Shown here in pieces: positions 12,815 to 34,158 of a DNA stretch of 64,000 nucleotides. The stretch is taken from contig OZ240215.1 of the NCBI GenBank assembly GCA_965197585.1, forward strand, positions 3,296,001 to 3,360,000, in the 5' to 3' direction. A program made the position numbers and the translations under genes. This stretch comes from Dehalococcoidia bacterium. Lineage in GTDB: Bacteria; Chloroflexota; Dehalococcoidia; Plut-88900. The notes below the pieces were generated by a model that saw only the letters and a program-made list of their open reading frames with translations, had not been told where the DNA came from and did not search any database. How positions within the stretch are numbered: position 1 is the stretch's first letter; every line of letters begins with the position of its first letter.

Positions 12815-15800
12815 CTAGCCCGAGAAGTATAGAACAAGCACCGCCAGCACGTCGTCCTTGCTGATCTCGCCGTCGAAGTAGTCGCTTACCGCTCGGATAG
12901 CTTCACTTCTCTCTATGCTCTCGTTCCTGTTGGCATCGTACTCGCTTAGCAGTTCCATTTGAGCCACACCCGAGCTCGTTGCCGCCTGCGCACTCTTACC
13001 AGTCCCGACTGCATCGTCGTAGCTGACCGTGGCCCGCAGGAATATGCCCGCGTCACTCTCTCCCGGCGTGTAGCTCGCCGACGTAGCTCCCTGGATGTCC
13101 GTCCACCCTGTGGAGCCGTTACTCGACTTCGCCCATTGCCAGGTTGCTCCCGTGACCCCGCCGTCGGGGTCCGACAGAGTTGCCGTGATCTCACTCCCGA
13201 CCTCCGGCGTCCTTGTCGAAAGCGTTACCGTACCGTCATCGTCTTCTGCGACTGCGGCTGCCGTCACGGCATTCGCGCTCTTCCCGGGGCCCACCGAGTC
13301 TGTGTAGCTCGCCGTGGCCCGCAGGTAGCTGCCCACATTGGCGGTCGTCGCCGTGTAGCTGTTGGACGTAGCATTCAATATGAACACCCAGTTTGACGTG
13401 CCGTTGCGGGACATCTCCCATTGCCAAGTGACTCTCCTTACACCGCCGTCGGGATCGTCGATCCTAGCCGTCACAATGTCCCCGGCTGTCGGCATCGTCT
13501 CCGACAGGGTCACCCTTCCGTCGTCGTCCAGTGCCACCGCCGCCGTCGTGACCGCTTCGGCACTCTTGCCTGGCCCCGCTGCATCTGTGTAGCTCGCAGT
13601 CGCCCGCAGGTAGCTCCTCACATCCGCCGCCACGGTGGTATACGTGGACGAATTTGCTCCTATTATTGTTCTCCAGTTCGTCGTCCCGTTGGAGGAGAAG
13701 GCCCACGTCCACGTGACACCTGTTACTCTGCCGTCGGGGTCCGACAACACCGCCGTTACCCTCTCGCCTACCTCTGGGCTCGAAGGGGACAGGGTCACCG
13801 ACCCGTCGTCGTCCTCCGTCACCGCCGCTGCCGTGATGACCTCCGCGGTCTTGCCGGCGCCCGCGGCATCGTCATAGATAACCGTGGCCCGCAGGTATTT
13901 GCCCAGGACGCCCGCAGCAACCGTGTATGTCGCTGAATTGGCGCCGGCTATGCTCGTCCAGTTGCTCGTGCCGTTGGAGGAGGTCGCCCATTGCCAGGTT
14001 GCTCTCGTGACCCCGCCGTCGGGGTCCGTCAGCGTAGCAGTTACCGTTTCCCCGACCGTCGGCTCCGTCGGAGACAGCGCCACTACCCCGTCGTCGTCCT
14101 CCACTACAGCCGACGTGGTTACCGCCTCTGCGCTTTTGTCCGTGCCGTCTCCGTCATCATAGCTCGCCGTGGCCCGCAGGAAGGTACCCACGTCCGCCTC
14201 AGCTGCCGTGTAGGTTGACAACGTGGCCCCCGGTATGTCCAGCCAACCCGAGGTACTGCTCTCCGAACTGGCCCACTGCCAGGTCAGGTTTCTTATGTTT
14301 CCGTCCGGGTCCGTCAACCTCGCCGTAACACTGTCACCCACTGCCACCCGGTCCGCACTCAGCGTCACCCTGCCGTCGTCGTCCGCCAGCACCGCCGCAG
14401 TGGTTCTCGCACTGGCGCTCTTGCCCCCGCCCTCGGGGTCCGAGTAGTAGGCCGTCGCCTGCACGTAGTAGCCCCTGTCCTCCGCATCGAGGATGTAGCT
14501 ATCCGAGTTCGTCCCGGGGATCGGCGTCCACCCCGTCAACCCGGTCTCCGACCTCTCCCACTCCCAGCTTACGCTTGTCGGATCGCCATCGGGGTCCGTC
14601 AACTCGGCAGTGATCCGGGCCCCGATGGTGCCCCGCGTGGGCGTCAGCTTCACCTCTCCCTCTTCGTCGACGTTGTACACGTCTACCGTCACGTCCAACG
14701 CGTCCATCTCCCTGCCGGAGCGCGCCGTCACCGTCAGCTCGTATACGTTGTCCTTGTCCGAGTCCGCGGGGGACTCGAAGTTGGGCGTCGACCTGAAGGA
14801 CAGCGCCCCGCGGCTGTTTATCGAGAAGTCGGAGGCGTCGGTTCCGCTGAGCCTCCAGCTGACGTTGCCGGAATTCGGCCCCAGCGCCGAGTAGTCCGCC
14901 ACCCTGTCCCTGCCCTTCTCCGGGAAGCTGATGCTTCCGCGTCCCACCGCCACCAGCCCCGTCCTGGACAGCGTCGGCGTCTCGTCCACGTCTATCACGT
15001 CGATCGTCACCCTGATTGTATCGGACCTGCCGGACGGGTCCACGGCCCTGACGGTCACGCTGTACCTGTTCTTGGTCTCGAAGTCCAACTCAGTCCCGGC
15101 CGCCACGCTGATTTGGCCGGTGCCCCGGTCGATTGTGAAGTAGCGTGTGTCGCCGCCACTCAGCGAGTACTCCAATGTGTCGCGTGTACCATTAGAACAG
15201 TCTTGGGGATCGACATCGCAGTCCACGGCCGTAACTGTGTCGCCCACGATGTTGTCGATTGCATCGTTGGAGAGTACATCCTCCCGCACTTCTTTCGTGA
15301 CGCTAGCGCCTTCGAACTCCGGAGCTTCGTTGTTTCCATCCTCCATTTCTACAATGTTCGCAGTCGGTTCTGATGCGACCTTTTTACTGCCTTCCCCGTC
15401 TGAGTAGCTGGCCACGGCGGTTAAAGTTGCCCCAACGTCGGTATTACCCGTAATTACCTTCGGAGTGTAGCGAGATGAAGTGGCGCCAGAGATTAAGCAG
15501 TCTGTATCATTGTCGACGGCGCAGGTATTAGTTGGTAAGCTGTCCGGATTGACGTTTCTGTACCACTGCCAACGAACGCTTTTTTCCCTGTCCGGATCGC
15601 TCAGGCTGGCCGTCAGCGGCGTCCTGACCTCCGGCTCCGTGTGCGACAACCTCACCGTTCCTTTCTCTCCCACGTTCTCAACGGTTATCTTCACCTTCAC
15701 AGAAGCCGTATTGCCCGCCTCATCGGCGGCCTGCACCGTGACTTCGTACACGTTGTTGCGGCCCGAGTCCGTCGCCGCTTCGTAGTCCGGCCCGCTCTTG

Positions 15801-19069: not shown

Positions 19070-19227
19070 AGCTACACCTTGCTTACTTCTCTCATCCCGA
19101 GGCCCCGAGAATGGGATCCAGGACTTGCGCAGTAACCGCTCAGCCTGCCCTCCAATAGTTAGATAGGAACGCCGAGCCCAATAAAAAAACTACTTCATTC
19201 TTCGCACAAGTCTTAAACCTAATCCGA

Positions 19228-19256
19228 ATTCTCTCAATCACCAAAGCATATGTCAA
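19228..19256 (-). promoter_or_regulatory. putative sigma70 promoter of the giant cadherin gene
   Basis: TTGACA-17-GAGAAT on minus strand. Confidence 0.5.
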
Positions 19257-19283
19257 CTTATCCCCCCATCCGATGGGAGCCAG

Positions 19284-19477
19284 TCCGCCTTAGGCGGATC
19301 ATTCCTGCCCCCGAGCCGGAATCCATCCCCCTCCCCCCAGTACTGAATTAGAGGTCCACGTGCGTGCCCTGCACGCACGTGGACCTCTATTCTTATCTCC
19401 CCCTCTCCCTTGAAGGCCCTAAGGGTCGAAGATGCGCCTGTGGCGTGAGAGGGGGATCAAGGGGGTGAGGGTTCCCC
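19284..19477. repeat. cluster of palindromic repeats (15-nt hairpin, TCATTCC..GGAATC REP, 19-bp perfect hairpin, CCCTCTCCC..GAGAGGG REP)
   Basis: Read directly; homologous to 20311..20475, 38806..38855 and 60580..60609. Confidence 0.8.
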
Positions 19478-19746
19478 CGTGGGGCTGGGGCGGTGTCCCC
19501 CCAAAAGTGACACGAACCCCTTGACTGCATGCGCACACATGTACTATATTCACCCCCGGCTAGCTAGTCACACACCTAAACCCAAAGGAGGAACACACAA
19601 CCCAGGGGGAACACCAGCCCCGACTCACCCTGCCCCCTGCTTCCAGGCGATGGAAGGCCCAAAAACTTGTTCGGCAAGCCCTCTTCAGAGGCCCCTGCCG
19701 ATGCGCTTCCCATTATAGGATGCGTCTATCCCCGGCCCCTCGCGTG

Positions 19747-19830
19747 CCGGGTTCCCGGGTAGGTCTACCGGCCCCCGGGTTCCCGGGTAGGTCTACCGGC
19801 CCCCGGACTCCCGGGTAGGTCTACCGGCCC
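19747..19830. repeat. 28-bp tandem repeat x3
   Basis: CCGGGTTCCCGGGTAGGTCTACCGGCCC, third copy with 2 changes; no spacers. Confidence 0.9.
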
Positions 19831-20207
19831 CCCGGGCTAGCAAGGCCCTCGTGCCCTTGCTCTTCCCGCCGTCCCAGCCATCCGTCTCTATGACCGATGC
19901 ACTGGGACGCCGGTTATGTCCCCCGTCAGCGGTCCGGTCATGTGCCGCTCACGAATTGGGATCGGCCCCACACAACCCTGACCACAGCCGACAACGTGTG
20001 GGGATAATCCAGCCCGGCGCCGACGGCACGGCACAAACCCCCGGCCTGGTTTCTAGTCCCGGACCTTCCATCGCCTCCCCCCTCCCAACAAACAGAACCG
20101 AAACCCACAAACCCCACAATCGAAGATGGAACATCCGCCTCTGGAGGATCCGCCTCAGGAGGACTGAATAAAAACCCGGTGTGTCACTAATCTACCGAAC
20201 GAGCACA

Positions 20208-20475
20208 CTCCCTTGACGGGTCGCAGATGCGCCGAGGCGTGAGAGGCCTGGGGCCCTAGGCTCGCCGAGGAGGGTGAGGGTGATCCCCCTCCCCCTTCTC
20301 CTTATATCCCCCCCCAGTACCAAACTAGAGGGATACGCCTGCGCCCTCGCGCAGGCGTATCCCTCTGTTTATCTTTCCCCCTCTCCCTTGAAGGCCCTAA
20401 GGGTCGCAGATGTCGCAGATGCGCCCTTGGCGTGCGCCACCGGCGTGAGAGGGGGATCAAGGGGGTGAAGGTTCC
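20208..20475. repeat. composite palindromic repeats carrying 21-nt inserts and an 18-bp perfect hairpin
   Basis: Homologous to 19334..19477 and 38620..38798. Confidence 0.8.
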
Positions 20476-20749
20476 TATCCCCATCCCCCTTGTTTCCCTT
20501 GACTTACAGTGTTATCCTTCTCCCCGACGCTTTTCGGCGCATTTACACCCTACATACCCCACACGGGCCCTCCACTCCCTCGGGCCCCAGGACACCGCAA
20601 TTGCTCGACGTTTCGTTCGACCAATTCGTCCCTTCACCGGCCTTATCGGCCCCTAGTCCTGGAAGGAGCTAACTAACCCTGACCATCATGCCTACCACAT
20701 TGTCTCCACCCTATTCCCACATTGACACCCCCAATTGTGCAATAATTCT

Positions 20750-20780
20750 ATTGACACGACTCGAAAGGCGGTGCTAACAT
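20750..20780 (+). promoter_or_regulatory. putative sigma70 promoter flanked by two CAATTGTGCAA direct repeats
   Basis: TTGACA-18-TAACAT with TG extension; second TTGACA at 20722; CAATTGTGCAA at ~20732 and ~20787. Confidence 0.45.
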
Positions 20781-20856
20781 GCCCCGCAATTGTGCAAACA
20801 GCTATGGAAATGGTAATGTTGTCCCTGTCCCAAGACTCCACAAAGTGAGGCAGCTC

Positions 20857-23800
20857 ATGCTTAAGAGACCCTTCAAATCATTGATAGCCCGAATAGCCAT
20901 CGTCGCTCTCGCGCTGTCCCTCGTAGTCCCCTTCGTGCCTGCGGCCTTCGCCCAGGACGCGTCGTTCCCCTATGCGGAGGACCGCAATGACCCGGTGGCG
21001 ACCTTCACGGCGACCGATGCTGACGGAGACGCCATTGTCTGGTCGTTGAGCGGAGCGGATGCTGAACTCTTCACGATAGAGGGCGGCGTACTGGCATTCA
21101 AGAAGTCGCCTGACTACGAGAGTCCTGGAGACTCGGGATCTGACAACACCTACAACGTGACGTTGAACGCCTCCGGCGGCAGCCGTGACGTTGCCGTAAC
21201 GGTGACGAACGTGGACGAACCCGGTTCGGTGAGCCTGACTGACCTGCAGCCGCAGGCTGGAGAGCCTGTGGGAGCGTCGGCAAGTGACCAGGACGGGAGT
21301 CTGGACCAGACGACGTGGCAGTGGTCGAAGTCGATGGACGAGGCGGCGTGGAGTGACATCTCCGGGGCCAGTTCCCCGACGTACACGCCGGCGACTGAGG
21401 ACATAGGCTACTACCTGAGAGCAACGGCTTCCTACAGTGACGGTTTTGGCACTGGGCGAGACGATGCCAGTGCGGTTACGGCCTTTGCTGTGGAGGAGAG
21501 GCCGGTGGCCAACGCCCAGCCGGCGTTTGCCGATGATGAGACTGATACTCCGGACAGCAGTGAACAGACCCGTGCGGTGAGGGAGACGGCGAAGGGTGGC
21601 GACAGTGTAGGTAACGCAGTTACGGCGTCGGACTCCGATAACGACCCGCTGCTCTACAGCATGGACGGCACCCCGGTCGACCTCACTGGTATTTCCCCCA
21701 CCGAGAATGCGACAGGGGTTGATCCCGATGCTCTGTTCACGATTGACAGTAAGAGCGGGCAGATTTCGGTGAAGAGCGGTGCCAATACAGACTACCTGGA
21801 CCTTGAGAAGTACTTCACGACCGCGGCTGATGCGAATGCAGATCCGCCTGTGGAGCAGTCATTAGAATACATGGTCACTGTAACGGCTGAGGATCCGTCG
21901 GGTTCGATAGCCACGGTGACGGTGACGATCGAGGTCACGGCGGTGGACGAAGCGCCGGAAATTACACTGGTGACCGTTGGGTTGGGAATCGGCCAAACAG
22001 CTAGAATCTCCACACCCGGCCAAACCTTCGTGGTAAACACGCCGGAGCAGGACCCGTTGGATCTGGAGTCGCAAGCCGGCAGCGATGACGCCTTCTCCCA
22101 AGGTCTCCCGGTGTTCGATGCGGACGACCCTGAAGAAGCTACCGATCCTAATGTAGACAAGATAACCTGGACGATATCCGGGGTTGACGCCAAGCGCTTC
22201 CAGATAGCGAAGCTTGTTAATGCCGAAAACGGGGTTTCAGCTCCCAACGAGGGCTTCAACAGCAGCGCAGCGCTGCGGTGGTCCGCTGCGGACAGGAAAG
22301 GTCCCAGCTTCGAAGCTATGGACTCGGCTGATGGTGACAACGTGTACCTGGTGACGGTGACGGCCTTTGACGGCGTAGCCAGCAAGTCCCAGGACGTGAG
22401 CATCACGGTGAGGAACGTAGAAGAGGACGGGAGCATAAGCCTGTCGCAACTTGTGCCGCAGGAAGGCATAGCGGTAACAGCCCGTTTGAGCGACCCGGAC
22501 GGTGGCATAACGGGTGCCACGTGGCAGTGGTACAGAGGCGTTACGAATACTGCTGAATTGCCGGAAATAGATGACGCTGAAACTAACAAGTGCGACGCCG
22601 AACGTACTTCGAATTGCTGGATAGAGGGCGCGACATCGTCCACCTACACACCGAGGGCGGCTGACGCCACTGGTGGTCCCGATGACAGCGATAACAACCC
22701 GACAGCTCAGAAGCTGACGGTAGTGGCGAAATACACGGACGCCTACGTAACGGATGATGACACGCTAAATGACGACGGTACGGTAACACAGGGCACCTCA
22801 GACGACGTAGACGATGGCGACATGGTCATTGAGACATCGGCGCACGATGCGAGGGTGAGGCCGGACCAGAACGCCCAGCCTAGCTTTGGTGACGATGAGT
22901 CGGTGGACAGGAGCGTGGAGGAGAACGCCAAGAATGTCAGTGTTGGAGAGCCGGTGACGGCGACCGACGGCGACGACGACCCGCTGCTCTACACGCTTAG
23001 CGGAGATGACAGCGACAACTTCAAGGTGAACAACTCTGGGCAGATAGAAACTGCTAAGGCTTTGGACTTCGAGACGCAGTCTAGCTACAGCGTAATGGTG
23101 ACGGCGACCGACCCGTCCGGGGCCAATGACTCCATCGAGGTGAACATCACCGTAACCGACGCCGATGACCCCGCTACCATTTCGGCCGACGGGTCTGTTT
23201 CCTATGCGGAGGACCGCAATGACCCGGTGGCGACCTTCATGGCGACCGATGCTGACGGAGACGCCATCGTCTGGTCGTTGAGCGGAGCGGATGCGGAACT
23301 CTTCACGATAGAGGGCGGCGTGCTTGCGTTCAAGAAGTCGCCCAACTACGAAAGTGCTGGGGACGAGGGATCTGACAACACCTACAACGTGACGTTGAAC
23401 GCCTCCGGCGGCAGCCGTGACGTTGCCGTAACGGTGACGAACGTGGACGAACCCGGTTCGGTGAGCCTGACTGACCTGCAGCCGCAGGCTGGAGAGCCTG
23501 TGGGAGCGTCGGCAAGTGACCAGGACGGGAGTCTGGACCAGACGACGTGGCAGTGGTCGAAGTCGATGGACGAGGCGGCGTGGAGTGACATCTCCGGGGC
23601 CAGTTCCCCGACGTACACGCCGGCGACTGAGGACATAGGCTACTACCTGAGAGCAACGGCTTCCTACAGTGACGGTTTTGGCACTGGGCGAGACGATGCC
23701 AGTGCGGTTACGGCCTTTGCTGTGGAGGAGAGGCCGGTGGCCAACGCCCAGCCGGCGTTTGCCGATGATGAGACTGATACTCCGGACAGCAGTGAACAGA

Positions 23801-26346
23801 CCCGTGCGGTGAGGGAGACGGCGAAGGGTGGCGACAGTGTAGGTAACGCAGTTACGGCGTCGGACTCCGATAACGACCCGCTGCTCTACAGCATGGACGG
23901 CACCCCGGTCGACCTCACTGGTATTTCCCCCACCGAGAATGCGACAGGGGTTGATCCCGATGCTCTGTTCACGATTGACAGTAAGAGCGGGCAGATTTCG
24001 GTGAAGAGCGGTGCCAATACAGACTACCTGGACCTTGAGAAGTACTTCACGACCGCGGCTGATGCGAATGCAGATCCGCCTGTGGAGCAGTCATTAGAAT
24101 ACATGGTCACTGTAACGGCTGAGGATCCGTCGGGTTCGATAGCCACGGTGACGGTGACGATCGAGGTCACGGCGGTGGACGAAGCGCCGGAAATTACACT
24201 GGTGACCGTTGGGTTGGGAATCGGCCAAACAGCTACCATCACCACACCTGGGCAAACCTTCGTGGTAAACACGCCGGAGCAGGATCCGTTGGCTCTGCGG
24301 TCACAAGGCGAAACCACGGACCCCTTCTCCCAAGGTCTCCCGGTGTTCAATGCGAACGACCCGGAAAGTGAGACCCCAGAAGAGATAACGTGGTCGATAT
24401 CCGGGGATGACGCCAAGCGCTTCCAGATAGCGGAGCTTGATACCCCCAACACTGACTTCGACAGCAGCGCAGCGCTGCGTTGGGCCTCTGATGACGGGAA
24501 AGGTCCCAGCTTCGAAGCTATGGACTCGGCTGATGGTGACAACGTGTACCTGGTGACGGTGACGGCCTTTGACAGCGTTGCCAGCAAGTCTCAGGACGTG
24601 AGCATCACGGTGAGGAACGTAGAAGAGGACGGGAGCATAAGTCTGTCGCAGCTTGTGCCGCAGGAAGGCATAGCGGTAACAGCCCGTTTGAGCGACCCGG
24701 ACGGTGGCATAACGGGCGCCACGTGGCAGTGGTACAGAGGCGTTACGAATACTGCTGAATTGCCGGAAATAGATGACGCTGAAACTAACAAGTGCGACGC
24801 CGAACGTACTTCGAATTGCTGGATAGAGGGCGCGACATCGTCCACCTACACACCGAGGGCGGCTGATGCCACTGGTGGAGGTACTGATAACCCACCCACT
24901 GACCCCCAGAAGCTGACGGTGGTGGCGAAATACACGGACGCCTACGTAACGGACAGGTTCGGCGGTACTGATGGCACCGACCCGACCGACGCTGATGACC
25001 CCGCCAATCCTGACGGCACTGACGATGGTGACATGGTCATTGAGACATCGGCGCACGATGCCAGGGAGAGGCCGGACCAGAACGCCCAGCCTAGCTTTGG
25101 TGACGATGAGTCGGTGGACAGGAGCGTGGAGGAGAACGCCAAGAATGTCATAGTCGGAGAGCCGGTGACGGCGACCGACGGCGACGACGATCCGCTGCTC
25201 TACACGCTTAGCGGAGATGACAGCGACAACTTCAAGGTGAACAACTCTGGGCAGATAGAAACTGCTAAGGCTTTGGACTTCGAGACGCAGTCTAGCTACA
25301 GCGTAATGGTGACGGCGACCGACCCGTCCGGGGCCAATGACTCCATCACGGTGAACATCACCGTAACCGACGCCGATGACGGCGCAACCATTGAGGCCAA
25401 CGTGGCCCCAGAGTTCGACGGCGACACCGCAGACCGCAGTGTCCCAGAGGACGCCGAAGCCGGCGCCAACGTCGGCGGCCCCGTGGTCGCTACGGACGGC
25501 AACTCCGGTGACTCCGTGAGCTACGCCCTCAGCGGCGACGAAGCCGGCAGCTTCGCAATCTGGCCCAACGGCCAGATCACCGTAGCCGAAGGCGTCACCC
25601 TGGACTACGAGACCAGGAACGCCTACACCGTGGTCCTCACGGCCACCGATGGCTCGGGCGCAACCGACTCCATAACGGTCAACATCAGTGTGACCGACGT
25701 GGATGAGAACATCGCCCCCGCTTTCGCAGAAGAGAGCGCAACCCTCAGCGTGGTAGAAAACACCGGCGCTGGCAGCAACGTCGGTGACCCGGTGGTCGCC
25801 ACAGACGCCGATGAGGACGAGCTTACCTACGCCCTCAGCGGCGACGGTGCTGGCAGCTTCGAAATCTGGCCCAGCGGCCAGATCACCGTAGCCGAAGGCG
25901 CCAACCTGGACTACGAGTCCCAGACCAGCCACATGGTGACAGTCACCGCCAGCGACGGTAAAGGCGGCAGCGCCTCCATCGCCGTGACCATCAACGTCAG
26001 CAACGTAGGCCTGGATAACGCCTACGACGCGAACGACGATGGCGCAATCAGCAAGGACGAGGCAGTGACAGCCGTGAACGGCTACTTCCTGGACGAGATA
26101 ACCAGGGACGAGGCCCTCGTAGTCCTGGGCCTCTACTTCGCCGCCAATGGCGACGATGACGCCGCCACTGACGATGACGCCGCCACTGACGATGACGCCG
26201 CCACTGAAGACGACGCGGCCACCGAAGATGACGCCGCCTCCGAAGATGACGCCGCCGCTGACGATGACGCGGCCTCTGACGATGACGCCGCCTCTGACGA
26301 TGACGCCGCCGCCGATGACGCCGACTCCGGTGACACGGAAGCGTAG
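20857..26346 (+). CDS. giant secreted cadherin-repeat protein with ~2.2-kb internal duplication, dockerin-like module and Asp/Ala-rich tail
   Basis: Signal peptide MLKRPFK...PAAFAQ (start moved from 20779, which overlaps the -10); cadherin motifs; YDANDDGAISKDE...LYF; DDDAAT repeats. Confidence 0.88.
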   Translation: MLKRPFKSLIARIAIVALALSLVVPFVPAAFAQDASFPYAEDRNDPVATFTATDADGDAIVWSLSGADAELFTIEGGVLAFKKSPDYESPGDSGSDNTYNVTLNASGGSRDVAVTVTNVDEPGSVSLTDLQPQAGEPVGASASDQDGSLDQTTWQWSKSMDEAAWSDISGASSPTYTPATEDIGYYLRATASYSDGFGTGRDDASAVTAFAVEERPVANAQPAFADDETDTPDSSEQTRAVRETAKGGDSVGNAVTASDSDNDPLLYSMDGTPVDLTGISPTENATGVDPDALFTIDSKSGQISVKSGANTDYLDLEKYFTTAADANADPPVEQSLEYMVTVTAEDPSGSIATVTVTIEVTAVDEAPEITLVTVGLGIGQTARISTPGQTFVVNTPEQDPLDLESQAGSDDAFSQGLPVFDADDPEEATDPNVDKITWTISGVDAKRFQIAKLVNAENGVSAPNEGFNSSAALRWSAADRKGPSFEAMDSADGDNVYLVTVTAFDGVASKSQDVSITVRNVEEDGSISLSQLVPQEGIAVTARLSDPDGGITGATWQWYRGVTNTAELPEIDDAETNKCDAERTSNCWIEGATSSTYTPRAADATGGPDDSDNNPTAQKLTVVAKYTDAYVTDDDTLNDDGTVTQGTSDDVDDGDMVIETSAHDARVRPDQNAQPSFGDDESVDRSVEENAKNVSVGEPVTATDGDDDPLLYTLSGDDSDNFKVNNSGQIETAKALDFETQSSYSVMVTATDPSGANDSIEVNITVTDADDPATISADGSVSYAEDRNDPVATFMATDADGDAIVWSLSGADAELFTIEGGVLAFKKSPNYESAGDEGSDNTYNVTLNASGGSRDVAVTVTNVDEPGSVSLTDLQPQAGEPVGASASDQDGSLDQTTWQWSKSMDEAAWSDISGASSPTYTPATEDIGYYLRATASYSDGFGTGRDDASAVTAFAVEERPVANAQPAFADDETDTPDSSEQTRAVRETAKGGDSVGNAVTASDSDNDPLLYSMDGTPVDLTGISPTENATGVDPDALFTIDSKSGQISVKSGANTDYLDLEKYFTTAADANADPPVEQSLEYMVTVTAEDPSGSIATVTVTIEVTAVDEAPEITLVTVGLGIGQTATITTPGQTFVVNTPEQDPLALRSQGETTDPFSQGLPVFNANDPESETPEEITWSISGDDAKRFQIAELDTPNTDFDSSAALRWASDDGKGPSFEAMDSADGDNVYLVTVTAFDSVASKSQDVSITVRNVEEDGSISLSQLVPQEGIAVTARLSDPDGGITGATWQWYRGVTNTAELPEIDDAETNKCDAERTSNCWIEGATSSTYTPRAADATGGGTDNPPTDPQKLTVVAKYTDAYVTDRFGGTDGTDPTDADDPANPDGTDDGDMVIETSAHDARERPDQNAQPSFGDDESVDRSVEENAKNVIVGEPVTATDGDDDPLLYTLSGDDSDNFKVNNSGQIETAKALDFETQSSYSVMVTATDPSGANDSITVNITVTDADDGATIEANVAPEFDGDTADRSVPEDAEAGANVGGPVVATDGNSGDSVSYALSGDEAGSFAIWPNGQITVAEGVTLDYETRNAYTVVLTATDGSGATDSITVNISVTDVDENIAPAFAEESATLSVVENTGAGSNVGDPVVATDADEDELTYALSGDGAGSFEIWPSGQITVAEGANLDYESQTSHMVTVTASDGKGGSASIAVTINVSNVGLDNAYDANDDGAISKDEAVTAVNGYFLDEITRDEALVVLGLYFAANGDDDAATDDDAATDDDAATEDDAATEDDAASEDDAAADDDAASDDDAASDDDAAADDADSGDTEA
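20965..25380 (+). repeat. intragenic tandem duplication, initial offset 2232 bp
   Basis: CCTATGCGGAGGACCGCAAT at 20969 and 23201; long identical stretches. Confidence 0.92.
26152..26325 (+). repeat. 18-bp coding tandem repeat (DDDAAT-like, ~10 units)
   Basis: GACGATGACGCCGCCACT and variants. Confidence 0.9.
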
Positions 26347-26400
26347 AGGCGCACGCGGCAAATAGAGAGTAAGTAAAGAAAGCAAGAAGGAGTAAGGAAC

Positions 26401-28353
26401 TTGGTCAAGAAAGCGCTGATGCTGCTGGGAGTCCTCGCAATTGTCGGGGTCGCTGGCCTGTCGCTGTTGCTGCCGGATGCCGTGAGCGCAAGCGGGCACA
26501 GCGCGACCAGGTCCTTCGCAAACAATACCGTAATTACAGGCGCCGAGCTGGAGATTGAGATATCGGTCTCCGGCCTCGGCGGCTTCGGCCAGGTGCGGGA
26601 GACCCTCCCCGAAGGTTTCTCCTTCACCGGGTCTGACGAATCCGCCGTCGTGGACGGCCAGACCGTTAGCTTCACCGTCCTCAACAGCGAGGCAACCTTT
26701 AGCTACACCGTCACCGCCCCCGCCGCCACCGGGACCTACGAATTCTCCGGCTCAGTCCTCGACTCTGACAAGGAAGGGGAGGACACCGGCGGAGACTCCT
26801 CCATAGAAGTCACAGACCCACCCCTCGTGGCGGAGAGGTCCATATCCCGTTCCTCCGTCGGCTCCGGGGAACAGATCACCATAAGCATAGCCGCCTCCGG
26901 ATTCGGCGCCGCGGCATCCGTGGCTGAGAACGTACCCGCTGGACTCACCTACACGTTCAGCAGTCTCTCCTCCGCCGCCGTTAACATAGACGAAGGTAGC
27001 ATCAGATTCACCCTCCTCGGCGAGGATAGCTTCAGCTACACCCTTACCGCCGGAGACCCGGGTGACTACACTATCTCTGGTACGATCACAGATTTGGACA
27101 GGGTAAGCTTAGACATCACCGGCGACGACAGCATAACCGTTTCCGCCGCCGTGCCTGCTACCGCTGACCGGTCCTTCGGCGCCGCCTTCGCAGAACCCGA
27201 AGGTGAAGTCGTTGTGACCATCGCGGCCGCCGGCTACGGGGCCGCCGCCCGGATCGTGGAAACCCTCCCTGAGGGCTTCACCTACGTGAACACAGACCTC
27301 CCCGGCGGTGCCACAGGCGCCGACGGGCAGTCGGTCACCTTCGTCATTCTCGGCGAAGACAGCTTCACCTACACCGTCATCGCCCCCGCTGACACGGGCG
27401 CCTATGCCTTCAGTGGCTCGCTGACTGATATCGACAAGAACGAAATCCCCATCGGAGGCACAACCGACTTGAAAGTTGGTGCTCCTCCGGCTTTCCCGGA
27501 GTCTGAGATGGGGATAAGAGAAATCGCCGAGAACACCGATGCGGGCGTCGACATCGGTGATCCGGTAGCGGCCGAGTCGACGGTCGGGGCACTGACATAC
27601 GAAATAACAGGTGATGATGCCCCAGACTTCGACATCGACACAGCCACTGGTCAATTGAAGACCAAATCCGCCCTTGACTACGAGACCAAGGCCAGCTACT
27701 CCGTCAGTGTAACCGCCACCGATGAACTCGGGAGTACGGCTTCCCTAGAAGTGACTGTTCAGGTCACCAATGTGTACGAGGGCATCATGATCACGGACAG
27801 CGGTGTCCGCGAAATCAACGAAAATACGCCCTTCGGCGTACGCATCGGCGACCCGATTGACGCCACTTCCGCCGATGGTAGCTCCTTGACCTTCGAGATC
27901 ACCAGCGCCGCCGCAGACACCTTCGACATCGAACCCGACACCGGTCAGTTGAGGACTAAGGGCGACCTGGACTTCGAGACCAGAGCCAGCTACTCGCTCC
28001 AGGTAACCATCACCGACGAGTACGGCGAGAGTGCCTCCCTGGTAGTAACCATCAAGGTCCTCGACCGTGATGAGTACGTCGAACCGACGGCCACACCTGA
28101 ACCTACAGCGGTGCCGCCCACGGCAGTGCCTCCCACGGCAGTACCGCCGACGGCCACTTCGGTGCCGCCCACGGCCACTTCAGTACCGCCCACAGCAGCA
28201 CCCGAACCGACAGTGGCGCCTGAGCCCACGGCCGTCCCTGAACCAGAGGATGAAGGTGGATTCCCGGTCTGGGCCATCATAGTGATAGTCCTGGCGGTAA
28301 TAGCGGGCGTAGCCATCATCGGGTTCGTCATCTACCGCAGACGCCAAGCGTAA
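26401..28353 (+). CDS. membrane-anchored surface protein: signal peptide, 3 tandem ~108-aa beta-rich modules, 2 cadherin domains, Pro/Thr linker, C-terminal TM helix + RRR
   Basis: Repeats RS...ETLPEGF...F..LGEDSF.YT..A..G.Y.FSG..D.D; PTAVP repeats; GGFPVWAIIVIV...YRRRQA. Confidence 0.85.
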   Translation: MVKKALMLLGVLAIVGVAGLSLLLPDAVSASGHSATRSFANNTVITGAELEIEISVSGLGGFGQVRETLPEGFSFTGSDESAVVDGQTVSFTVLNSEATFSYTVTAPAATGTYEFSGSVLDSDKEGEDTGGDSSIEVTDPPLVAERSISRSSVGSGEQITISIAASGFGAAASVAENVPAGLTYTFSSLSSAAVNIDEGSIRFTLLGEDSFSYTLTAGDPGDYTISGTITDLDRVSLDITGDDSITVSAAVPATADRSFGAAFAEPEGEVVVTIAAAGYGAAARIVETLPEGFTYVNTDLPGGATGADGQSVTFVILGEDSFTYTVIAPADTGAYAFSGSLTDIDKNEIPIGGTTDLKVGAPPAFPESEMGIREIAENTDAGVDIGDPVAAESTVGALTYEITGDDAPDFDIDTATGQLKTKSALDYETKASYSVSVTATDELGSTASLEVTVQVTNVYEGIMITDSGVREINENTPFGVRIGDPIDATSADGSSLTFEITSAAADTFDIEPDTGQLRTKGDLDFETRASYSLQVTITDEYGESASLVVTIKVLDRDEYVEPTATPEPTAVPPTAVPPTAVPPTATSVPPTATSVPPTAAPEPTVAPEPTAVPEPEDEGGFPVWAIIVIVLAVIAGVAIIGFVIYRRRQA

Positions 28354-28404
28354 ACCGGGGCTAAGAACCCGCTGCGCAAGTAGGCAGCACAAAGTAGAGT
28401 AAAA

Positions 28405-28446
28405 TCCGCCCCCAGGGGTCACAACCCTTGGGGGCGGAGACTTTTT
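28405..28446 (+). terminator. intrinsic terminator
   Basis: TCCGCCCCCAGGGG...CCCTTGGGGGCGGA + T-run; similar to 34217..34254. Confidence 0.75.
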
Positions 28447-28494
28447 AGGTCGGATGTGTAGAGATTGTTGCTTTCTTAAGTTTGGAGAAATCAC

Positions 28495-28797
28495 ATGCGT
28501 CTTACCTCTAAGGAGATGGATCGACTCACAATCTTCACCGCAGCCGAGCTCGCTCGGCGGCGGCGGCAGAGAGGCTTAAAACTAAACTACCCGGAGGCCG
28601 TAGCCCTCATATGCGACGAGCTTCTCGAAGATGGCCGCGAAGGTAAAACCTACGAAGAGGTTATGACACACGCGATCAATATTCTCTCCACTGATGACGT
28701 CCTGGACGGCGTCCCTGACTTGGTAACCCCCATCCGCCTCGAGGTCACCTTCGACGATGGGAACAAGCTCATATATGTGGAAAACCCCATCAGATAG
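28495..28797 (+). CDS. ureA: urease gamma subunit homologue
   Basis: MRLTSKE..RL, RRR.RGLKLNYPEAVA, EVTF.DG.KL...NPI. Confidence 0.92.
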   Translation: MRLTSKEMDRLTIFTAAELARRRRQRGLKLNYPEAVALICDELLEDGREGKTYEEVMTHAINILSTDDVLDGVPDLVTPIRLEVTFDDGNKLIYVENPIR

Positions 28798-28810
28798 GAG
28801 GACGATACCG

Positions 28811-29182
28811 ATGAAACCGGGCGAGGTCATTCCAGCCGAAAGTGCCATACAGATAAATGAGGGCCGAGAAGTTATCGCTATTTCTGTAACCAACACCTCG
28901 GACCATGCCGTCCAAGTCACGTCCCACTATCACTTCTTCGAAGCCAATAAACGGTTGCAGTTTGATCGGACTGCAGCCTATGGAAAACGACTCGACGTGC
29001 CTTCGGGCGCTGCAGTCCGATGGCAACCGGGGGAAACCAGGAGAGTCCGGCTGATAGACATCGGGGGAAAACGAAGAGTGTTCGGTTTCCAGGGGCTGGT
29101 TAACGGCCGACTAACTGACGAGCAACGCGGTGAGGCCCTACACCGGGCCCGAGACCGCGGCTTTCTGGACCAGGAGAGTTAA
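28811..29182 (+). CDS. ureB: urease beta subunit homologue
   Basis: MKPGE, VQVTSHYHFFEAN, AYGKRLDVPSG.AVR; start at MKPGE after AGGAGG. Confidence 0.92.
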   Translation: MKPGEVIPAESAIQINEGREVIAISVTNTSDHAVQVTSHYHFFEANKRLQFDRTAAYGKRLDVPSGAAVRWQPGETRRVRLIDIGGKRRVFGFQGLVNGRLTDEQRGEALHRARDRGFLDQES

Positions 29183-29184
29183 CC

Positions 29185-30861
29185 ATGTCTGTTGAGATCA
29201 CGAGAGCTGAATATGACTCCCTATATGGACCCACCACTGGTGATCGTATCCGACTGGGTGACACTGATCTCCTCTTGGAAGTGGAGGCTGACCACACCTC
29301 CTACGGCAACGAAATAACTCACGGTTGGGGAAAGAATAGTCGCACCGGCATGATGCACGCCTACCAGACCCCTGGGGACAGCGAGCTAGACAGCATCATA
29401 GTTGGTTCCGTCATCGTCGATCCCGTGTTAGGTATCTTCAAGGGCGACATCGGCATCAAGGATGGCCTCATCGCAGGAATCGGGCGGGCTGGGAACCCAG
29501 ACATCATGGATGGCGTTGACCTTGTGCTGGGCCCGAACACCAACGTTCTCCCTGCCGCCGGCCTCATAGCTACTCCTGGAGGCGTAGATAGCCACGTCCA
29601 CATCTACGACAACCCTAAACTCATGGAGACCGCCATAAGTTCCGGTATTACCACCTTCATAGGCGCAGGGCTGAATCACAACGGCGACTTCACCATTCAC
29701 AAGTACTTCGAGGCCTTTGAGGAGATCCCCATAAACCTGGGAGTCCAGGGCCGAGGCGCTGCCAGTCACCCCTCCCCAATAGAGCGCAACATAGAAGCCG
29801 GCGCCTGCGGCATGAAGATCCATGAAGACGAGGGTGCCTATCCCTATGTGATAGATCTCTGCCTGCAGGTTGCCGAGCAATATGATGTCTCCGTTGCCCT
29901 CCACACCGACGGCCTGCAGGAGTCCATGCAAGTCATGGACACCATAGAGGCCATCGGAGGTAGAGCGCTCCACGCCTACCATGTAGAAGGTGTAGGCGGA
30001 GGCCACGCCCCGGATCTCCTCAAGTTGGCCGGTGTTGAAAACATAATGACCTCCTCTACAACGCCCACCATCCCTTACACGGCCGGGACTTATCAGGAAC
30101 ATTTTCCGATGACAGCCTTGGTCCACGGACTTACGCCCCACCTGCCCACAGACGTTGCTGCCCTTGAAGCCAGGGTCCGTCGCGAGACCATGGCCGCCGA
30201 GGACGTACTCCACGATATGGGAGCCGTTCCCATCATCAACTCGGACTCACAAGGTATGGGCCGTATAGGGGAAGTAGTTACAAGAACATGGCAGCTCGCT
30301 CACAAGATGAAGCGGGAGCGGGGAGCAGCCAACCCCCACAACGACAATGACCGCATCCTTCAATACCTCGCCAAAATCACAATTAACCCCGCCATTACTC
30401 ACGGCATTTCGGACTACGTCGGCTCCTTGGAGAAGGGGAAGCTGGCCGACATCGTCCTTTGGAACCCCCGTTTCTTTGGGGTGAAACCCGAGACAGTAAT
30501 CAAAGGCGGCTTTGTTACGTGGGGGACGCGTGGAGAAGGCAACGCTTCGATATCTAACTGTGAGCCGGTGATATACGGCCCTGCTTTCGGAGCGATGGGT
30601 CGCGCCGCCGGGAGGTTGAGCGTCTTTTTCGTATCCCAGGCCTCATTGGACAATGGCTTGTCGGAGCGCCTGGGCAGCCGGCGGCAGCTTCTGCCCGTTA
30701 AGAACGTTCGTAGTGCATCTAAAAGAAAGATGGTTCGTAACAAACTTAATCCCGAGATCGAAATAGATCCCAGGACCTCCCGTGTCCTGGTCAACAGACA
30801 GGAGGCCATCTCAGAAGCAATTAGAGAGGTTCCTCTAAACCGCCTTTACGTAATCACATGA
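29185..30861 (+). CDS. ureC: urease alpha subunit homologue with divergent substrate pocket
   Basis: YGPTTGD, DSHVH, KIHED, HVEGVGGGHAPD, SDSQGMGR, TINPA; flap and ATT loop altered. Confidence 0.85.
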   Translation: MSVEITRAEYDSLYGPTTGDRIRLGDTDLLLEVEADHTSYGNEITHGWGKNSRTGMMHAYQTPGDSELDSIIVGSVIVDPVLGIFKGDIGIKDGLIAGIGRAGNPDIMDGVDLVLGPNTNVLPAAGLIATPGGVDSHVHIYDNPKLMETAISSGITTFIGAGLNHNGDFTIHKYFEAFEEIPINLGVQGRGAASHPSPIERNIEAGACGMKIHEDEGAYPYVIDLCLQVAEQYDVSVALHTDGLQESMQVMDTIEAIGGRALHAYHVEGVGGGHAPDLLKLAGVENIMTSSTTPTIPYTAGTYQEHFPMTALVHGLTPHLPTDVAALEARVRRETMAAEDVLHDMGAVPIINSDSQGMGRIGEVVTRTWQLAHKMKRERGAANPHNDNDRILQYLAKITINPAITHGISDYVGSLEKGKLADIVLWNPRFFGVKPETVIKGGFVTWGTRGEGNASISNCEPVIYGPAFGAMGRAAGRLSVFFVSQASLDNGLSERLGSRRQLLPVKNVRSASKRKMVRNKLNPEIEIDPRTSRVLVNRQEAISEAIREVPLNRLYVIT

Positions 30862-30966
30862 CAGGCGTGCGGTTCGGGATAGTGTCCCCTCTTGGCTCAC
30901 TCGAACAGTCTTGCCCCTTGCCAATGGCTTAATGAATTTGGTTTTAAATCAGTTGCAATTGCATGA

Positions 30967-33900
30967 CTTGGATACGCGCAAGGGCTGGTTGAGGCAAAGA
31001 AATTTGCGAGAGATTTCGACGAGAACGACACCGGCTTGGTGTTCCAGTTCGCAGCTACCGACCCGGAAGGCCAGCCGATTAGATGGGAGCTGCCGGGAGA
31101 TGACGCTGCCGATTTCTACATTACGGAAGGTGCACTTTCATTTAGTGTCACTCCTGATTACGAAAACCCGGCTGACAAGAACCGCGACAACATATACCAG
31201 GTAACGGTAGAGGCCAGAGACCCCGGATTTAACGTAGCCCCCGCCGACGTGACCGTTACAGTGCTCAATGTGGACGAACGGGGTACGGTAACCCTTTCCA
31301 CCCAGACTCCTCAAGAGGAAGTCGGTCTGAGTGCTGAACTTTCTGACCCTGACGGTATCACCACCCAGGCTCAGTGGCAGTGGTCCCGCTCCTCCGACGG
31401 CTTGAACGGTTGGACGAACATCAGTGGCGCCGCGACAAGAAATTACACTCCCGTAGAAGCCGATGTCGGCGGCTACCTTCGTGCCGCGGCCACCTATGAG
31501 GATGCCCAGAGCGTAGACGTGGAAAAAACTGCCCACGGAATATCGGCCAACCCGGTTTTGGCCAAACCCTACATAAACCAGGCCCCAGAGTTCCTTGACG
31601 AGGAACCCACAAGAACTGTGAACGAAAATGCGGCTGCCGACGCCCCAGTGGGTGACCCTGTTGCAGCCGAAGACCCCGACGACGATCCCTTGACCTACGC
31701 CCTCAGCGGCACCGATGCAGGTTCCTTCGGCATCGATGACAGCACCGGCCAGATTTCGGTGCCCGCCGAAACCTCTTTGGACTTCGAGACCAAGAGTAGC
31801 TATTCCGTCACCGTTACAGCCACCGACCCCTCAGGCGAAAGCGATAGCGTCGACATGACCATTACCGTCATGGACGTGAACGAACCACCGGATGTGACAG
31901 AGGGCGAAACGGACCTTGAGCACGCTGAACATGGCACTGATGCTGTTGAGCAATTTGTAGCAGTAGACCCCGAAGGCCAGGACGTTAGTTGGAGACTCTC
32001 GGGTGACGATGCCAACGACTTTGACATTACGGGCGGAGCCCTTACCTTCAACTCCTCGCCTGACTTCGAAAACCCGGCCGACCGGGGTTCCGACAATGTC
32101 TACAACATGACGGTAGGAGCTAGCGACACTGGTGGAAGGCTCACCGAGGTAGATGTAACCGTTACCGTTACCAACGTGGACGAGCCGGGCACGGTCACGC
32201 TCTCGTCTGACCAGCCTGAGGAGGGCGTCCGTATCTCCGCCGATTTGGCGGACCCCGACTACATAGATGGCACTAAAGTTTGGCAGTGGTCCTGGTCCTC
32301 CGACGGCACCACCGATTGGATCGATATCCCCAACGCCACCGGCGGCATCTACACCCCGAATGTGACGGTTGTGGGCCTCTACTTGCAGGCCACAGCCACC
32401 TACAATGACCGTGAAAGTGCCCTAACTACCAGGACTGCTAGCAGGGCTACTGCGAACCCCGTCCTGGCTGCGGGCGAAGTCAACTCAGCGCCCCGCTTCC
32501 TGGATAGATCTCCGGAAAGGTTCGTGAACGAAAACGCCGCGGCAAATGCCCCCGTCGGTGATCCTGTCGCTGCCGAGGACGAAGACAGCGACACCCTGAC
32601 CTACTCCATGACTGGTACAGACGCTGATTCCTTCGACATTGACGTGGATACCGATCAGATCTCGGTAGCCGAAGGCACCGCCTTTGACTACGAAAGTACC
32701 ATCAGCTACAGCGTCACCGTAGAGGCCACCGACCCGGACGGTGATAGCGACAGCGTAGACGTCGCCATAATGGTCAATGACGTGGATGAGCCCCCCTCAT
32801 TCACCGTGGACAACACCGAGCTTGAGTACGCCGAGAACGGTGCTGGTTCCGTTACAACGTTCACCGCTACCGATCCTGAAGGTGGAGACATCGGATGGGG
32901 CCTTTCCGACGACGATGCTGACCTCTTCTCCATTGACGACGGAGCGCTCAGCTTCGCCTCCTCGCCTGACTTCGAGAGCCCCGCAGACGAAGACACTGAC
33001 AACGTCTACAACCTAACCATCGGAGCCAGTGACGCCGAAGGCAACCTCACTGAGGTGGATGTTACCGTCACCGTCACCAATGTGGACGAAGCAGGTACAG
33101 TCACCCTGTCGTTGCTCGAGCCTGAAGAGGAAGTCCGCATCACAGCCACCCTGGCCGATCCTGATGGCATTGCCTCCAACATCAGGTGGCAGTGGGCACG
33201 TTCCTCCGACGGCTCTACCGCCTGGGTGGACATTGATGAAGCCACTTCCGGTATATACACCCCCGTTCCCGCGGACGCCGACCACTACCTGCGTGCTACC
33301 GCCAACTACTAAGACAGAGAGAGCGCTACGGTTACAAAGACCGTGGCCGCTGCAACCGATGAACCGGTTGTGGGCATACCGCACATCAACCGGGGCCCTG
33401 AGTTCGTTGACCAGGATCCGACCGACAGGACCGTGAACGAAAATTCGGCTGAGGCGGCCCTCGTTGGGAATCCTGTCGAAGCCGTGGATGCCGACAACGA
33501 TGTGTTGGTTTACACCATCAGCGGTGATGACGCAGGCTCGTTCGATGTAATCACAGCAACCGGTCAGATCACGGTTGGCGCCGGGACATCCCTGGACTTC
33601 GAAACACGGACAAGCTACATGGTCACCCTTACTGTCTCTGACCCGTCCGGGGCCTCAGACACCATAGATGTCGACGTCGAAGTAACTAATGTCGACGAAC
33701 CCCCGACAATCGACCTGACCGTACCTGGCCCCGAAAGAGAGGACGCTGTATTCCAGGAGAACAGCACCAGCCCCGTGGCCAGCTACACCGTTGGTGGGCA
33801 AACCGAAGGCTTCGAGTGGAGCTTGTCGGGTATCGACGCTGGTAACTTCTCCATCAGCAACAGCGGGGTGCTCACATTCAACTCGCCTCCCGACTATGAG

Positions 33901-34158
33901 AACCCCACAGACAATGACAGGAACAACGAGTACCTGATCAGCGTCAACGCAACAGACAGCGATGGTAAGACTGGGACCACTGCCGTAACCGTAACCGACG
34001 TCAACGATACCGGTGAAGCAGCGGTTGGCAGGTACGACCAGAACGACGACGGGACGATAGACAGGGAAGAAGCTCTCAGAGCCATAAGAGACTACTTCGA
34101 CGACATCATAACCAAGGACCAGGTGCTGACTGTCATCATGCGGTACTTTATCGGCTAA
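30967..34158 (+). pseudogene. cadherin-repeat protein with dockerin-like C-terminus, broken by in-frame stops
   Basis: ORFs 31036..33312 and 33343..34158 share one frame, separated by TAA in ANY*DRES (cf. ATYNDRES earlier in the gene); upstream in-frame TGA at 30964; no intact signal peptide. Confidence 0.75.

Follow-up and report, generated by a model that had tools for sequence, protein, structure and literature searches.

A 64,000-nucleotide window (positions 3,296,001 to 3,360,000 of contig OZ240215.1) from the genome of a Dehalococcoidia bacterium encodes giant secreted cadherin-repeat proteins that share a segment of about 45 residues at or near the C-terminus, referred to here as the tail, together with a membrane-anchored protein that carries three tandem β-sandwich modules, referred to here as the modules. 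On balance, the tail probably docks on the module and so anchors exoproteins to the cell. The two would form a new docking pair that is analogous to cohesin and dockerin and built from other sequence families, as judged from sequence comparisons. A previous sequence-only reading of the same DNA had proposed an anchored scaffold that captures tagged cargo in the manner of a cellulosome. The general arrangement is borne out by the co-occurrence of the two parts, by the order of their genes, and by the architecture of the proteins; neither part is a cohesin or a dockerin by sequence.

The distribution of the two sequences among genomes gives strong support to a functional coupling between the tail and the module. 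The genome-wide co-occurrence that had been proposed as a check was found in a survey of 401 Dehalococcoidia genomes, in which 37 contained both parts, 7 contained the tail only, 2 contained the module only, and 355 contained neither. The genomes with both parts belong to at least eight families (f1, f6, f34, f46, f58, f59, f22, and f24), and the distribution is patchy inside families. For family f6, both parts are present in 14 of 25 genomes, and one additional, fragmented genome contains the tail only. Among 61 relatives, the tail and module profiles matched the same 11 genomes, with one further weak match to the module only. When a phylum-wide sample of 301 genomes was searched, the tail and strong matches to the module were obtained in the same 2 genomes, and weak matches to the module (E about 1e-6 to 1e-7) were obtained in 2 others. 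A search with the alignment of the three window tails provided 12 loci, with the module directly downstream in 2 of them; all 12 are from metagenome-assembled genomes (MAGs) of the Dehalococcoidia, which agrees with the assignment to the Chloroflexota made from the letters alone. The genome that contains the window (G000) is a single contig of 3.43 Mb and is 92% complete. A six-frame scan of its 3,429,519 bases with the three-tail profile recovered exactly the three window tails (E 4e-28 to 5e-26), with the next best match at E 0.94. The module profile recovered only the three copies in the window, with the next best match at E 0.42. All three tails and all three modules of this genome fall within 21 kb.

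The order of the two genes is also recurrent. A tail match on the same strand ends 97–355 base pairs (bp) upstream of the modules, with a median of 154 bp, in 45 of 59 module arrays. The gap is occupied mostly by the signal peptide of the receptor itself, and several of the paired reading frames overlap. The other 14 arrays are weak matches (G033 and G149), stop-bearing fragments (G302 and G326), second receptors within a cluster (G122 twice, G286, and G333 C139), two more G333 arrays on short contigs, a module–tail fusion (G246), the arrays of G059 and G377, and an array in G184 for which the upstream open reading frame (ORF) has a tail of only 17 bits.

The proteins encoded by these gene pairs were compared for their domain content. 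Of 24 module-bearing frames from 20 loci in other genomes, 18 end in a Pro/Thr linker, a transmembrane (TM) helix, and basic residues, as located with a hydropathy window. The number of modules per receptor ranges from 1 to 4, and in the smallest receptors (235–333 residues) the module is the only folded ectodomain. Cadherin repeats were detected at E ≤ 1e-5 in 17 of 18 proteins encoded upstream. One of the upstream proteins has a glucose/sorbosone dehydrogenase domain, one has a PPDK_N-like domain, and one has an SWM repeat; another upstream protein with a tail has no cadherin and is a solute-binding protein of the Peripla_BP_2 type. The cargo had been described as adhesive rather than enzymatic. 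This description fits the majority, which are cadherin adhesins, and is too narrow for the dehydrogenase domain and the solute-binding protein of the relatives.

The proposed mechanism is a two-gene system that attaches proteins noncovalently to the cell surface. At the C-terminus, the secreted cargo would carry a tag of approximately 45 residues consisting of one calcium-binding EF-hand loop and a two-helix hairpin. The cargo would be the two giant cadherin-repeat adhesins in the window and, in relatives, enzymes and a solute-binding protein as well. The gene immediately downstream would encode a type-I membrane receptor composed of a signal peptide, one to four DUF11-like distal modules, and a Pro/Thr stalk that leads through a TM helix to a short basic segment in the cytoplasm. 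The calcium-loaded tail would then dock on the module, and the adhesins would be held on the stalk above the membrane. We infer the physical contact between tail and module, its calcium dependence, and its stoichiometry.

The components found in the window are listed in Table 1. The sequence-only reading had counted three large cadherin proteins with the same tail, terminal in each. Three tails are indeed present where they had been placed, and those of the first and third proteins are terminal; the third protein is a broken remnant, and giant 2 continues for another 69 residues. Only two intact tail-bearing giants are therefore encoded, and these are on opposite strands. Giant 1 has an N-terminal hydrophobic signal segment, a Pfam Cadherin match of 232 bits, and SCAB-Ig-like repeats. 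The Pfam Cadherin match of giant 2 is 163 bits. The gene for the module protein starts 54 bp past that of giant 2, and its product has a signal peptide at the N-terminus. The three modules (26491..26823, 26824..27153, and 27154..27486) are mutually 37–41% identical. The spacing of the genes, the three modules, the Pro/Thr linker, and the TM helix followed by RRR had all been recognized previously; what had been missed are the two cadherin domains, which appear as two stretches with a combined Pfam Cadherin match of 88.5 bits between the modules and the linker. The whole module protein gives a BatD/DUF11-like Pfam match of 35 bits, for which the BatD cut-off is 24.1.

Table 1. Positions of the tail-bearing proteins, the module protein, and their parts within the window
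Feature	Position	Strand	Basis
Giant 1, secreted cadherin-repeat protein of 2084 aa	12815..19069	-	translation; Pfam
Tail 1: EF-hand loop and two helices, each with terminal YF, then SG and stop	12824..12940	-	translation, profile
Giant 2, secreted cadherin-repeat protein of 1855 aa, Sec-type signal peptide	20779..26346	+	translation; Pfam
Tail 2, copy directly upstream of the module gene	26023..26139	+	translation, profile, model
Acidic low-complexity extension past tail 2	26140..26346	+	translation, repeat analysis
Membrane-anchored module protein, 650 aa, proposed receptor and stalk	26401..28353	+	translation; Pfam
Three tandem β-sandwich modules, 110–111 aa each, directly past the signal peptide	26491..27486	+	profile; model
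Two cadherin domains (about residues 365–560)	27493..28080	+	Pfam Cadherin; boundaries approximate
Pro/Thr-rich linker (stalk)	28093..28245	+	read from sequence; boundaries approximate
C-terminal TM helix, then RRRQA and stop	28261..28353	+	read from sequence
Remnant of third tail-bearing cadherin protein	31036..34158	+	translation; Pfam
Tail 3	34033..34149	+	translation, profile

The means by which the giants could be retained at the cell surface were considered. As had been reported from the sequence, LPxTG is absent from all three tail-bearing proteins, and the translations of the two giants have no C-terminal TM helix. Family searches of the whole genome of G000 returned no match to a sortase, no match to a penicillin-binding protein (PBP) transpeptidase, and only one match of the Mur-ligase type (Mur_ligase_M). 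The Dehalococcoidia are described as lacking peptidoglycan. Since genes for a sortase and a PBP transpeptidase were not found, there is probably no wall for protein attachment, and where a wall is absent a membrane protein receptor is a sensible holder of secreted proteins. The lack of another anchor on the giants, together with the lack of sortase and PBP matches, was counted in favor of anchoring by the module protein.

In an alignment of the three window tails, 15 of the 45 positions are invariant. Each contains a canonical 12-residue loop of the form D-x-N/D-x-D/N-G-x-I-x-x-x-E that is followed by a helix. Across 56 tails, positions 1, 3, 5, 6, 8, and 12 of the loop are D, N/D, D/N, G, I, and E, respectively; the I is invariant, and the D and E are conserved in at least 90%. 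A conserved second helix ends in YF, and there is no entering helix before the loop. The model of the tail, made with 55 relatives, has a predicted local distance difference test score (pLDDT) of 93.5 and consists of the loop and two helices at residues 19–30 and 36–48. The EF-hand-like loop and the two helices ending in YF, as first described, are thus found in the translations and appear as a two-helix hairpin in the model. A dockerin-type duplication of the calcium segment is not found. The D-x-N-x-D ligands are in the first segment only, a five-residue turn without them precedes the second helix, and the tail therefore has one calcium loop. Two other functions for the tail were tried and rejected. 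As a membrane anchor, the tail has too short a hydrophobic stretch and was modeled as an amphipathic hairpin; as a sortase signal, it is accompanied by neither LPxTG nor a sortase.

For comparison with Pfam families, 41 modules and 56 tails were used. The window tails score 14–20 bits against EF-hand_1, EF-hand_5, EF-hand_6, and EF-hand_7, which is under the cut-offs of 25–30 bits, and the tails of 47 of the 56 relatives touch EF-hand_6. Weak matches to Dockerin_1 were obtained for 4 of the 56 tails, with a best E of 1.3e-5; the three window tails have no match to Dockerin_1 at E ≤ 10. When the 56-tail profile was compared with solved structures, the loop alone aligned with hippocalcin, ALG-2, calmodulin, and similar proteins at E 2.5e-9 and weaker, and the best 60 matches listed include only canonical EF-hand proteins and no dockerin. 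The Foldseek search of the tail model returned nothing at E ≤ 0.001 and is uninformative for so short a hairpin. The comparison of the same model with VIA reached a maximum Z of 4.1, with dockerins 2ozn_B (Z 3.7) and 2vn5_B (Z 3.2) among many tied helical hairpins, and is likewise uninformative.

In a library of 1.84 billion proteins, clustered at 50% identity, 1986 cluster representatives match the tail at E ≤ 0.001, and 238 still do so at E ≤ 1e-10. The position of the tail was counted in 173 library proteins, many of which are contig-end fragments, with 202 full-length copies of the tail. Of these copies, 132 end no more than 8 residues from the C-terminus, 45 begin within the first 120 residues, and 25 are elsewhere. 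Some of the library tails sit right behind signal peptides, and two such proteins look like trypsin-type proteases, as judged by eye without a Pfam scan. The frequent location at the extreme C-terminus raises the question of whether the tail serves as a signal for export or maturation and the module protein as an accessory for the secretion, folding, or processing of the protein encoded upstream. The tight and partly overlapping gene pair, which suggests co-translation, would fit this explanation. It is nevertheless quite improbable, given that tails are also found directly behind signal peptides, as tandem copies, and at internal positions, that giant 2 continues past its tail, and that ordinary signal peptides are present at the N-terminus of the tail-bearing proteins. 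The module protein, moreover, has no enzyme or transporter domain and consists just of β-sandwiches, a stalk, and a TM helix.

The single modules are remotely related to DUF11 (PF01345), which was matched by 26 of the 41 modules with a best E of 1.8e-6, and to BatD (PF13584), which was matched by 10. The model of the module has a pLDDT of 95.1 and is an all-β sandwich with 11 strands by DSSP; the cohesin fold is a flattened β-sandwich (jelly-roll) of nine strands. The top match from VIA is the Clostridium perfringens GH84C cohesin (2w1n_A), with a Z of 12.3 and a root-mean-square deviation of 2.5 over 109 aligned residues. A second C. perfringens cohesin (2vo8_A) follows with a Z of 11.7, and eight more cohesin or cohesin-like entries have Z values of 9.4–10.0. 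The Foldseek search of the module placed the CLIPPER adhesin domain 9ifr first (E 3e-6), and the matches listed to rank 39 contain at least eight rows that belong to seven cohesin entries.

The genome also encodes a pair of the known type outside of the window, at G000:C1:2195357-2197301. A true Pfam Cohesin match (51.2 bits) was identified on a 171-residue lipoprotein-like ORF with the lipobox VVSGC. This ORF is directly downstream of the gene for a 473-residue HExxH protein, which has one dockerin-like repeat at its end (Dockerin_1 19.7 bits, below the cut-off). Because these two genes are ordered in the same way as tail and then module, a known docking pair uses the same gene order in this genome. 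A complex of the three-module region, one calcium ion, and the tail was also predicted; the score of 0.00, against a mark of 0.32 and obtained without controls, speaks neither for nor against binding.

Several results weigh against the docking of the tail on the module and must be set beside those given above. Some concern the module itself. No match to Pfam Cohesin (PF00963) was obtained for any of the 41 modules at E ≤ 1. In comparisons with the genome's own pair, hhalign assigned a probability of 0.6% to the module profile and the cohesin, and 0.3% to the tail and the dockerin-like repeat, such that no relation is detectable. The resemblance of the modules to cohesins that had been looked for was found in so far as 2w1n_A ranks at the top, and it shares that rank, to within 1 Z, with 9ifr, the CLIPPER domain (Z 12.2), and with Ig-like domains of pilin and antigen I/II (Z about 11). 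Given this tie, the fold is compatible with a cohesin and does not single cohesin out.

Other contrary results concern the distribution of the tail. The tail family is far larger than the module family. In the class survey, 73 of 118 tails have no module beside them, although for many a module lies no more than about 15 kb away, as it does in the window. A module was not detected at E ≤ 1e-5 in 7 of the 44 tail-positive genomes. These include two with partial matches (G072 and G308), three fragmented assemblies, and G100 and G260. The last two are near-complete, with 1–2 contigs, and have no credible module; none was found at E ≤ 1 in G100, and one was found at E 0.146 in G260. In G260, 13 paralogous genes for proteins of 740–1720 residues lie on one strand over about 50 kb (C1:2150000-2205000), each with a terminal, divergent tail (YDADGDGxIsQSE…KAYAAS). 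The tails of G100 and G260 belong to a divergent subtype with the ending …KAYAAS; its partner may be a different one, or it may have no partner. The expectation that tails would not be common where modules are missing holds for 37 of the 44 tail-positive genomes and breaks down for some genomes with divergent tails. Kinship must be considered as well. Most of the genomes in which the two parts co-occur are kin, and the two-by-two table consequently overstates their independence, for which reason its Fisher p-value was given no weight; the adjacency of the two genes could in part be that of an inherited operon.

The contrary results bear on two further explanations. In the first, the tail acts alone, either through calcium-driven dimerization or oligomerization of the giants or by binding another component of the envelope; the module protein would be a surface stalk or adhesin that is expressed alongside without ever contacting the tail. 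EF-hands usually pair, and a tail dimer may thus be the functional unit. Each tail has a single canonical loop, and 27 of the 173 library proteins have two or more tail copies, which could pair within one chain. The tails that do not adjoin a module, the tails of G100 and G260 in genomes without modules, the generic Ig-like adhesin or stalk fold of the module, and the cadherin domains of the window's own module protein point in the same direction. An independently acting tail is possible but rather unlikely, because it leaves unexplained the joint gain and loss of module and tail over at least eight families, the position of the module gene directly after the tail in most of the arrays, and the minimal receptors that present a bare module on a stalk.

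In the second explanation, the two parts have no functional link and stem from an ancient two-gene operon for surface proteins, inherited and duplicated as a block. A small number of related families account for most of the genomes with the pair, and gene order is shared among kin. This account is highly improbable. The upstream gene swaps cargo domains and yet keeps the tail at the junction, and tail–module pairs with diverged sequences occur two to three times per genome. A module immediately followed by a tail in one frame was found in G246 and in 3 of the 173 library proteins, and the presence and absence of the two parts agree inside patchy families such as f6.

The docking of the tail on the module was also considered in a more specific form. 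This version describes a previously undescribed calcium-dependent pair, analogous and not homologous to cohesin–dockerin, that would serve as a general holder of exoproteins in the wall-less Dehalococcoidia. Within the genus of the window genome, each of the three modules would capture one of the three tail types to give a three-adhesin assembly on every stalk. Taken as a whole, this proposal is doubtful. The one-to-one correspondence of modules and tails is suggested because the module positions and the three tail orthogroups are each conserved across the genus, and because the numbers of tails and modules are equal in five of the eight genomes of the genus that carry the pair (three and three in G000, G001, G004, and G007; seven and seven in G003). 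The numbers are unequal in G005, G006, and G008.

The third cadherin frame of the window has no signal peptide and starts directly past the gene for urease alpha. It is broken by an in-frame TAA at 33310..33312, which leaves tail 3 on an ORF of 271 residues (33343..34158). The two pieces of the remnant have Pfam Cadherin matches of 103 and 56.6 bits. The genes for urease gamma, beta, and alpha (28495-30861) are located between the module protein and the broken cadherin gene. The remnant begins only 175 bp past ureC, which suggests that the 5′ part of the adhesin gene was lost by insertion or rearrangement.

The gene for giant 2 contains two types of repeats. Tail 2 is followed by the acidic stretch of 69 residues noted above, which is made of 18-nucleotide units; about ten of these units (26151-26346) encode the DDAA[TS]-type extension. 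Relatives of the module-adjacent tail type likewise run on beyond the tail. An internal tandem duplication of approximately 2.2 kb, with copies at about 20956-23100 and 23188-25311 that are 94–96% identical, is either recent or homogenized. In the C-terminal third of giant 1 (12941-15400, minus strand), approximately nine repeats of about 95 residues have the conserved motif T-W-Q-W…LRATA-Y-D. The Pfam match of this repeat is SCAB-Ig/AIR9-like, and the repeat alternates with cadherin domains in all of the giants. Neither a convincing ORF nor a Pfam match lies in the 1.7-kb gap between the divergent genes for the two giants (19070-20778). The minus-strand translations near 19393-19536 and 20302-20484 contain a similar peptide (…RPLGPSRERG…), a hint of a repeated element; the repeat search, with a minimum length of 60 nucleotides, reported nothing in 19070-20778.

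The closest known systems are the cohesin–dockerin pairs, including the noncellulosomal GH84 complex of C. perfringens (PDB entries 2w1n and 2ozn) and the cohesin of Archaeoglobus fulgidus (2xdh). The similarities are a small tag, consisting of a calcium loop and a helix, that terminates secreted proteins of several kinds; one to four β-sandwich receptor modules on a cell-anchored protein; and adjacent cognate genes. The differences are that the tail has about 45 residues and one calcium loop, whereas a dockerin (PF00404) has two tandem segments of about 22 residues (a duplicated F-hand), and that the cargo here consists mostly of adhesins, not of glycoside hydrolases. The docking of the pair described here is predicted. 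The tail has the loop and the following helix in common with EF-hand proteins and differs from them in being extracellular, in having a single loop, in lacking the entering helix, and in having the second helix that ends in YF. The module resembles DUF11/BatD, CLIPPER (9ifr), and pilin-type Ig-like domains in its weak sequence match and in its fold. Domains of the DUF11/CLIPPER type are passive stalk repeats within one long adhesin, whereas one to four modules make up the outer tip of a short membrane-anchored protein, the gene for which follows a tail-bearing gene in 45 of 59 arrays.

A comparable arrangement is known from SlaB of the Sulfolobales, in which N-terminal β-sandwich domains, a stalk, and a C-terminal TM helix hold the secreted surface-layer protein without peptidoglycan. 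The recognition element of the partner in SlaB-type systems is not an EF-hand tail, and the likeness to the module protein is one of description only. In the titles and abstracts of the literature, no paper that joins dockerin, cohesin, cadherin, and Chloroflexi and no description of the tail–module pair were found. The dockerin–Chloroflexi papers among those listed are concerned, by title and abstract, with lignocellulose, carbohydrate-active enzymes, or unrelated surveys. The word dockerin is likewise absent from the titles and abstracts of the best 20 papers on Chloroflexota, Dehalococcoidia, or SAR202.

How such adhesins are fixed to the cell may be relevant to host association; cadherin-repeat genes are reported to be enriched in sponge-associated MAGs (PMC8163846). 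None of the curated models tested covers the tail family beyond the sub-threshold EF-hand matches. Since the family is large (1986 clusters), a known function for the tail would annotate many metagenomic proteins. If the tail does dock on the module, the pair would be a second, independently evolved tag-and-receptor system beside the single well-studied one of cohesin and dockerin, and a small calcium-switchable docking pair of this kind would be useful as a building block for protein display. It would also explain how adhesins of megadalton scale, together with enzymes and binding proteins, stay on the surface of bacteria that have neither a wall nor a sortase.

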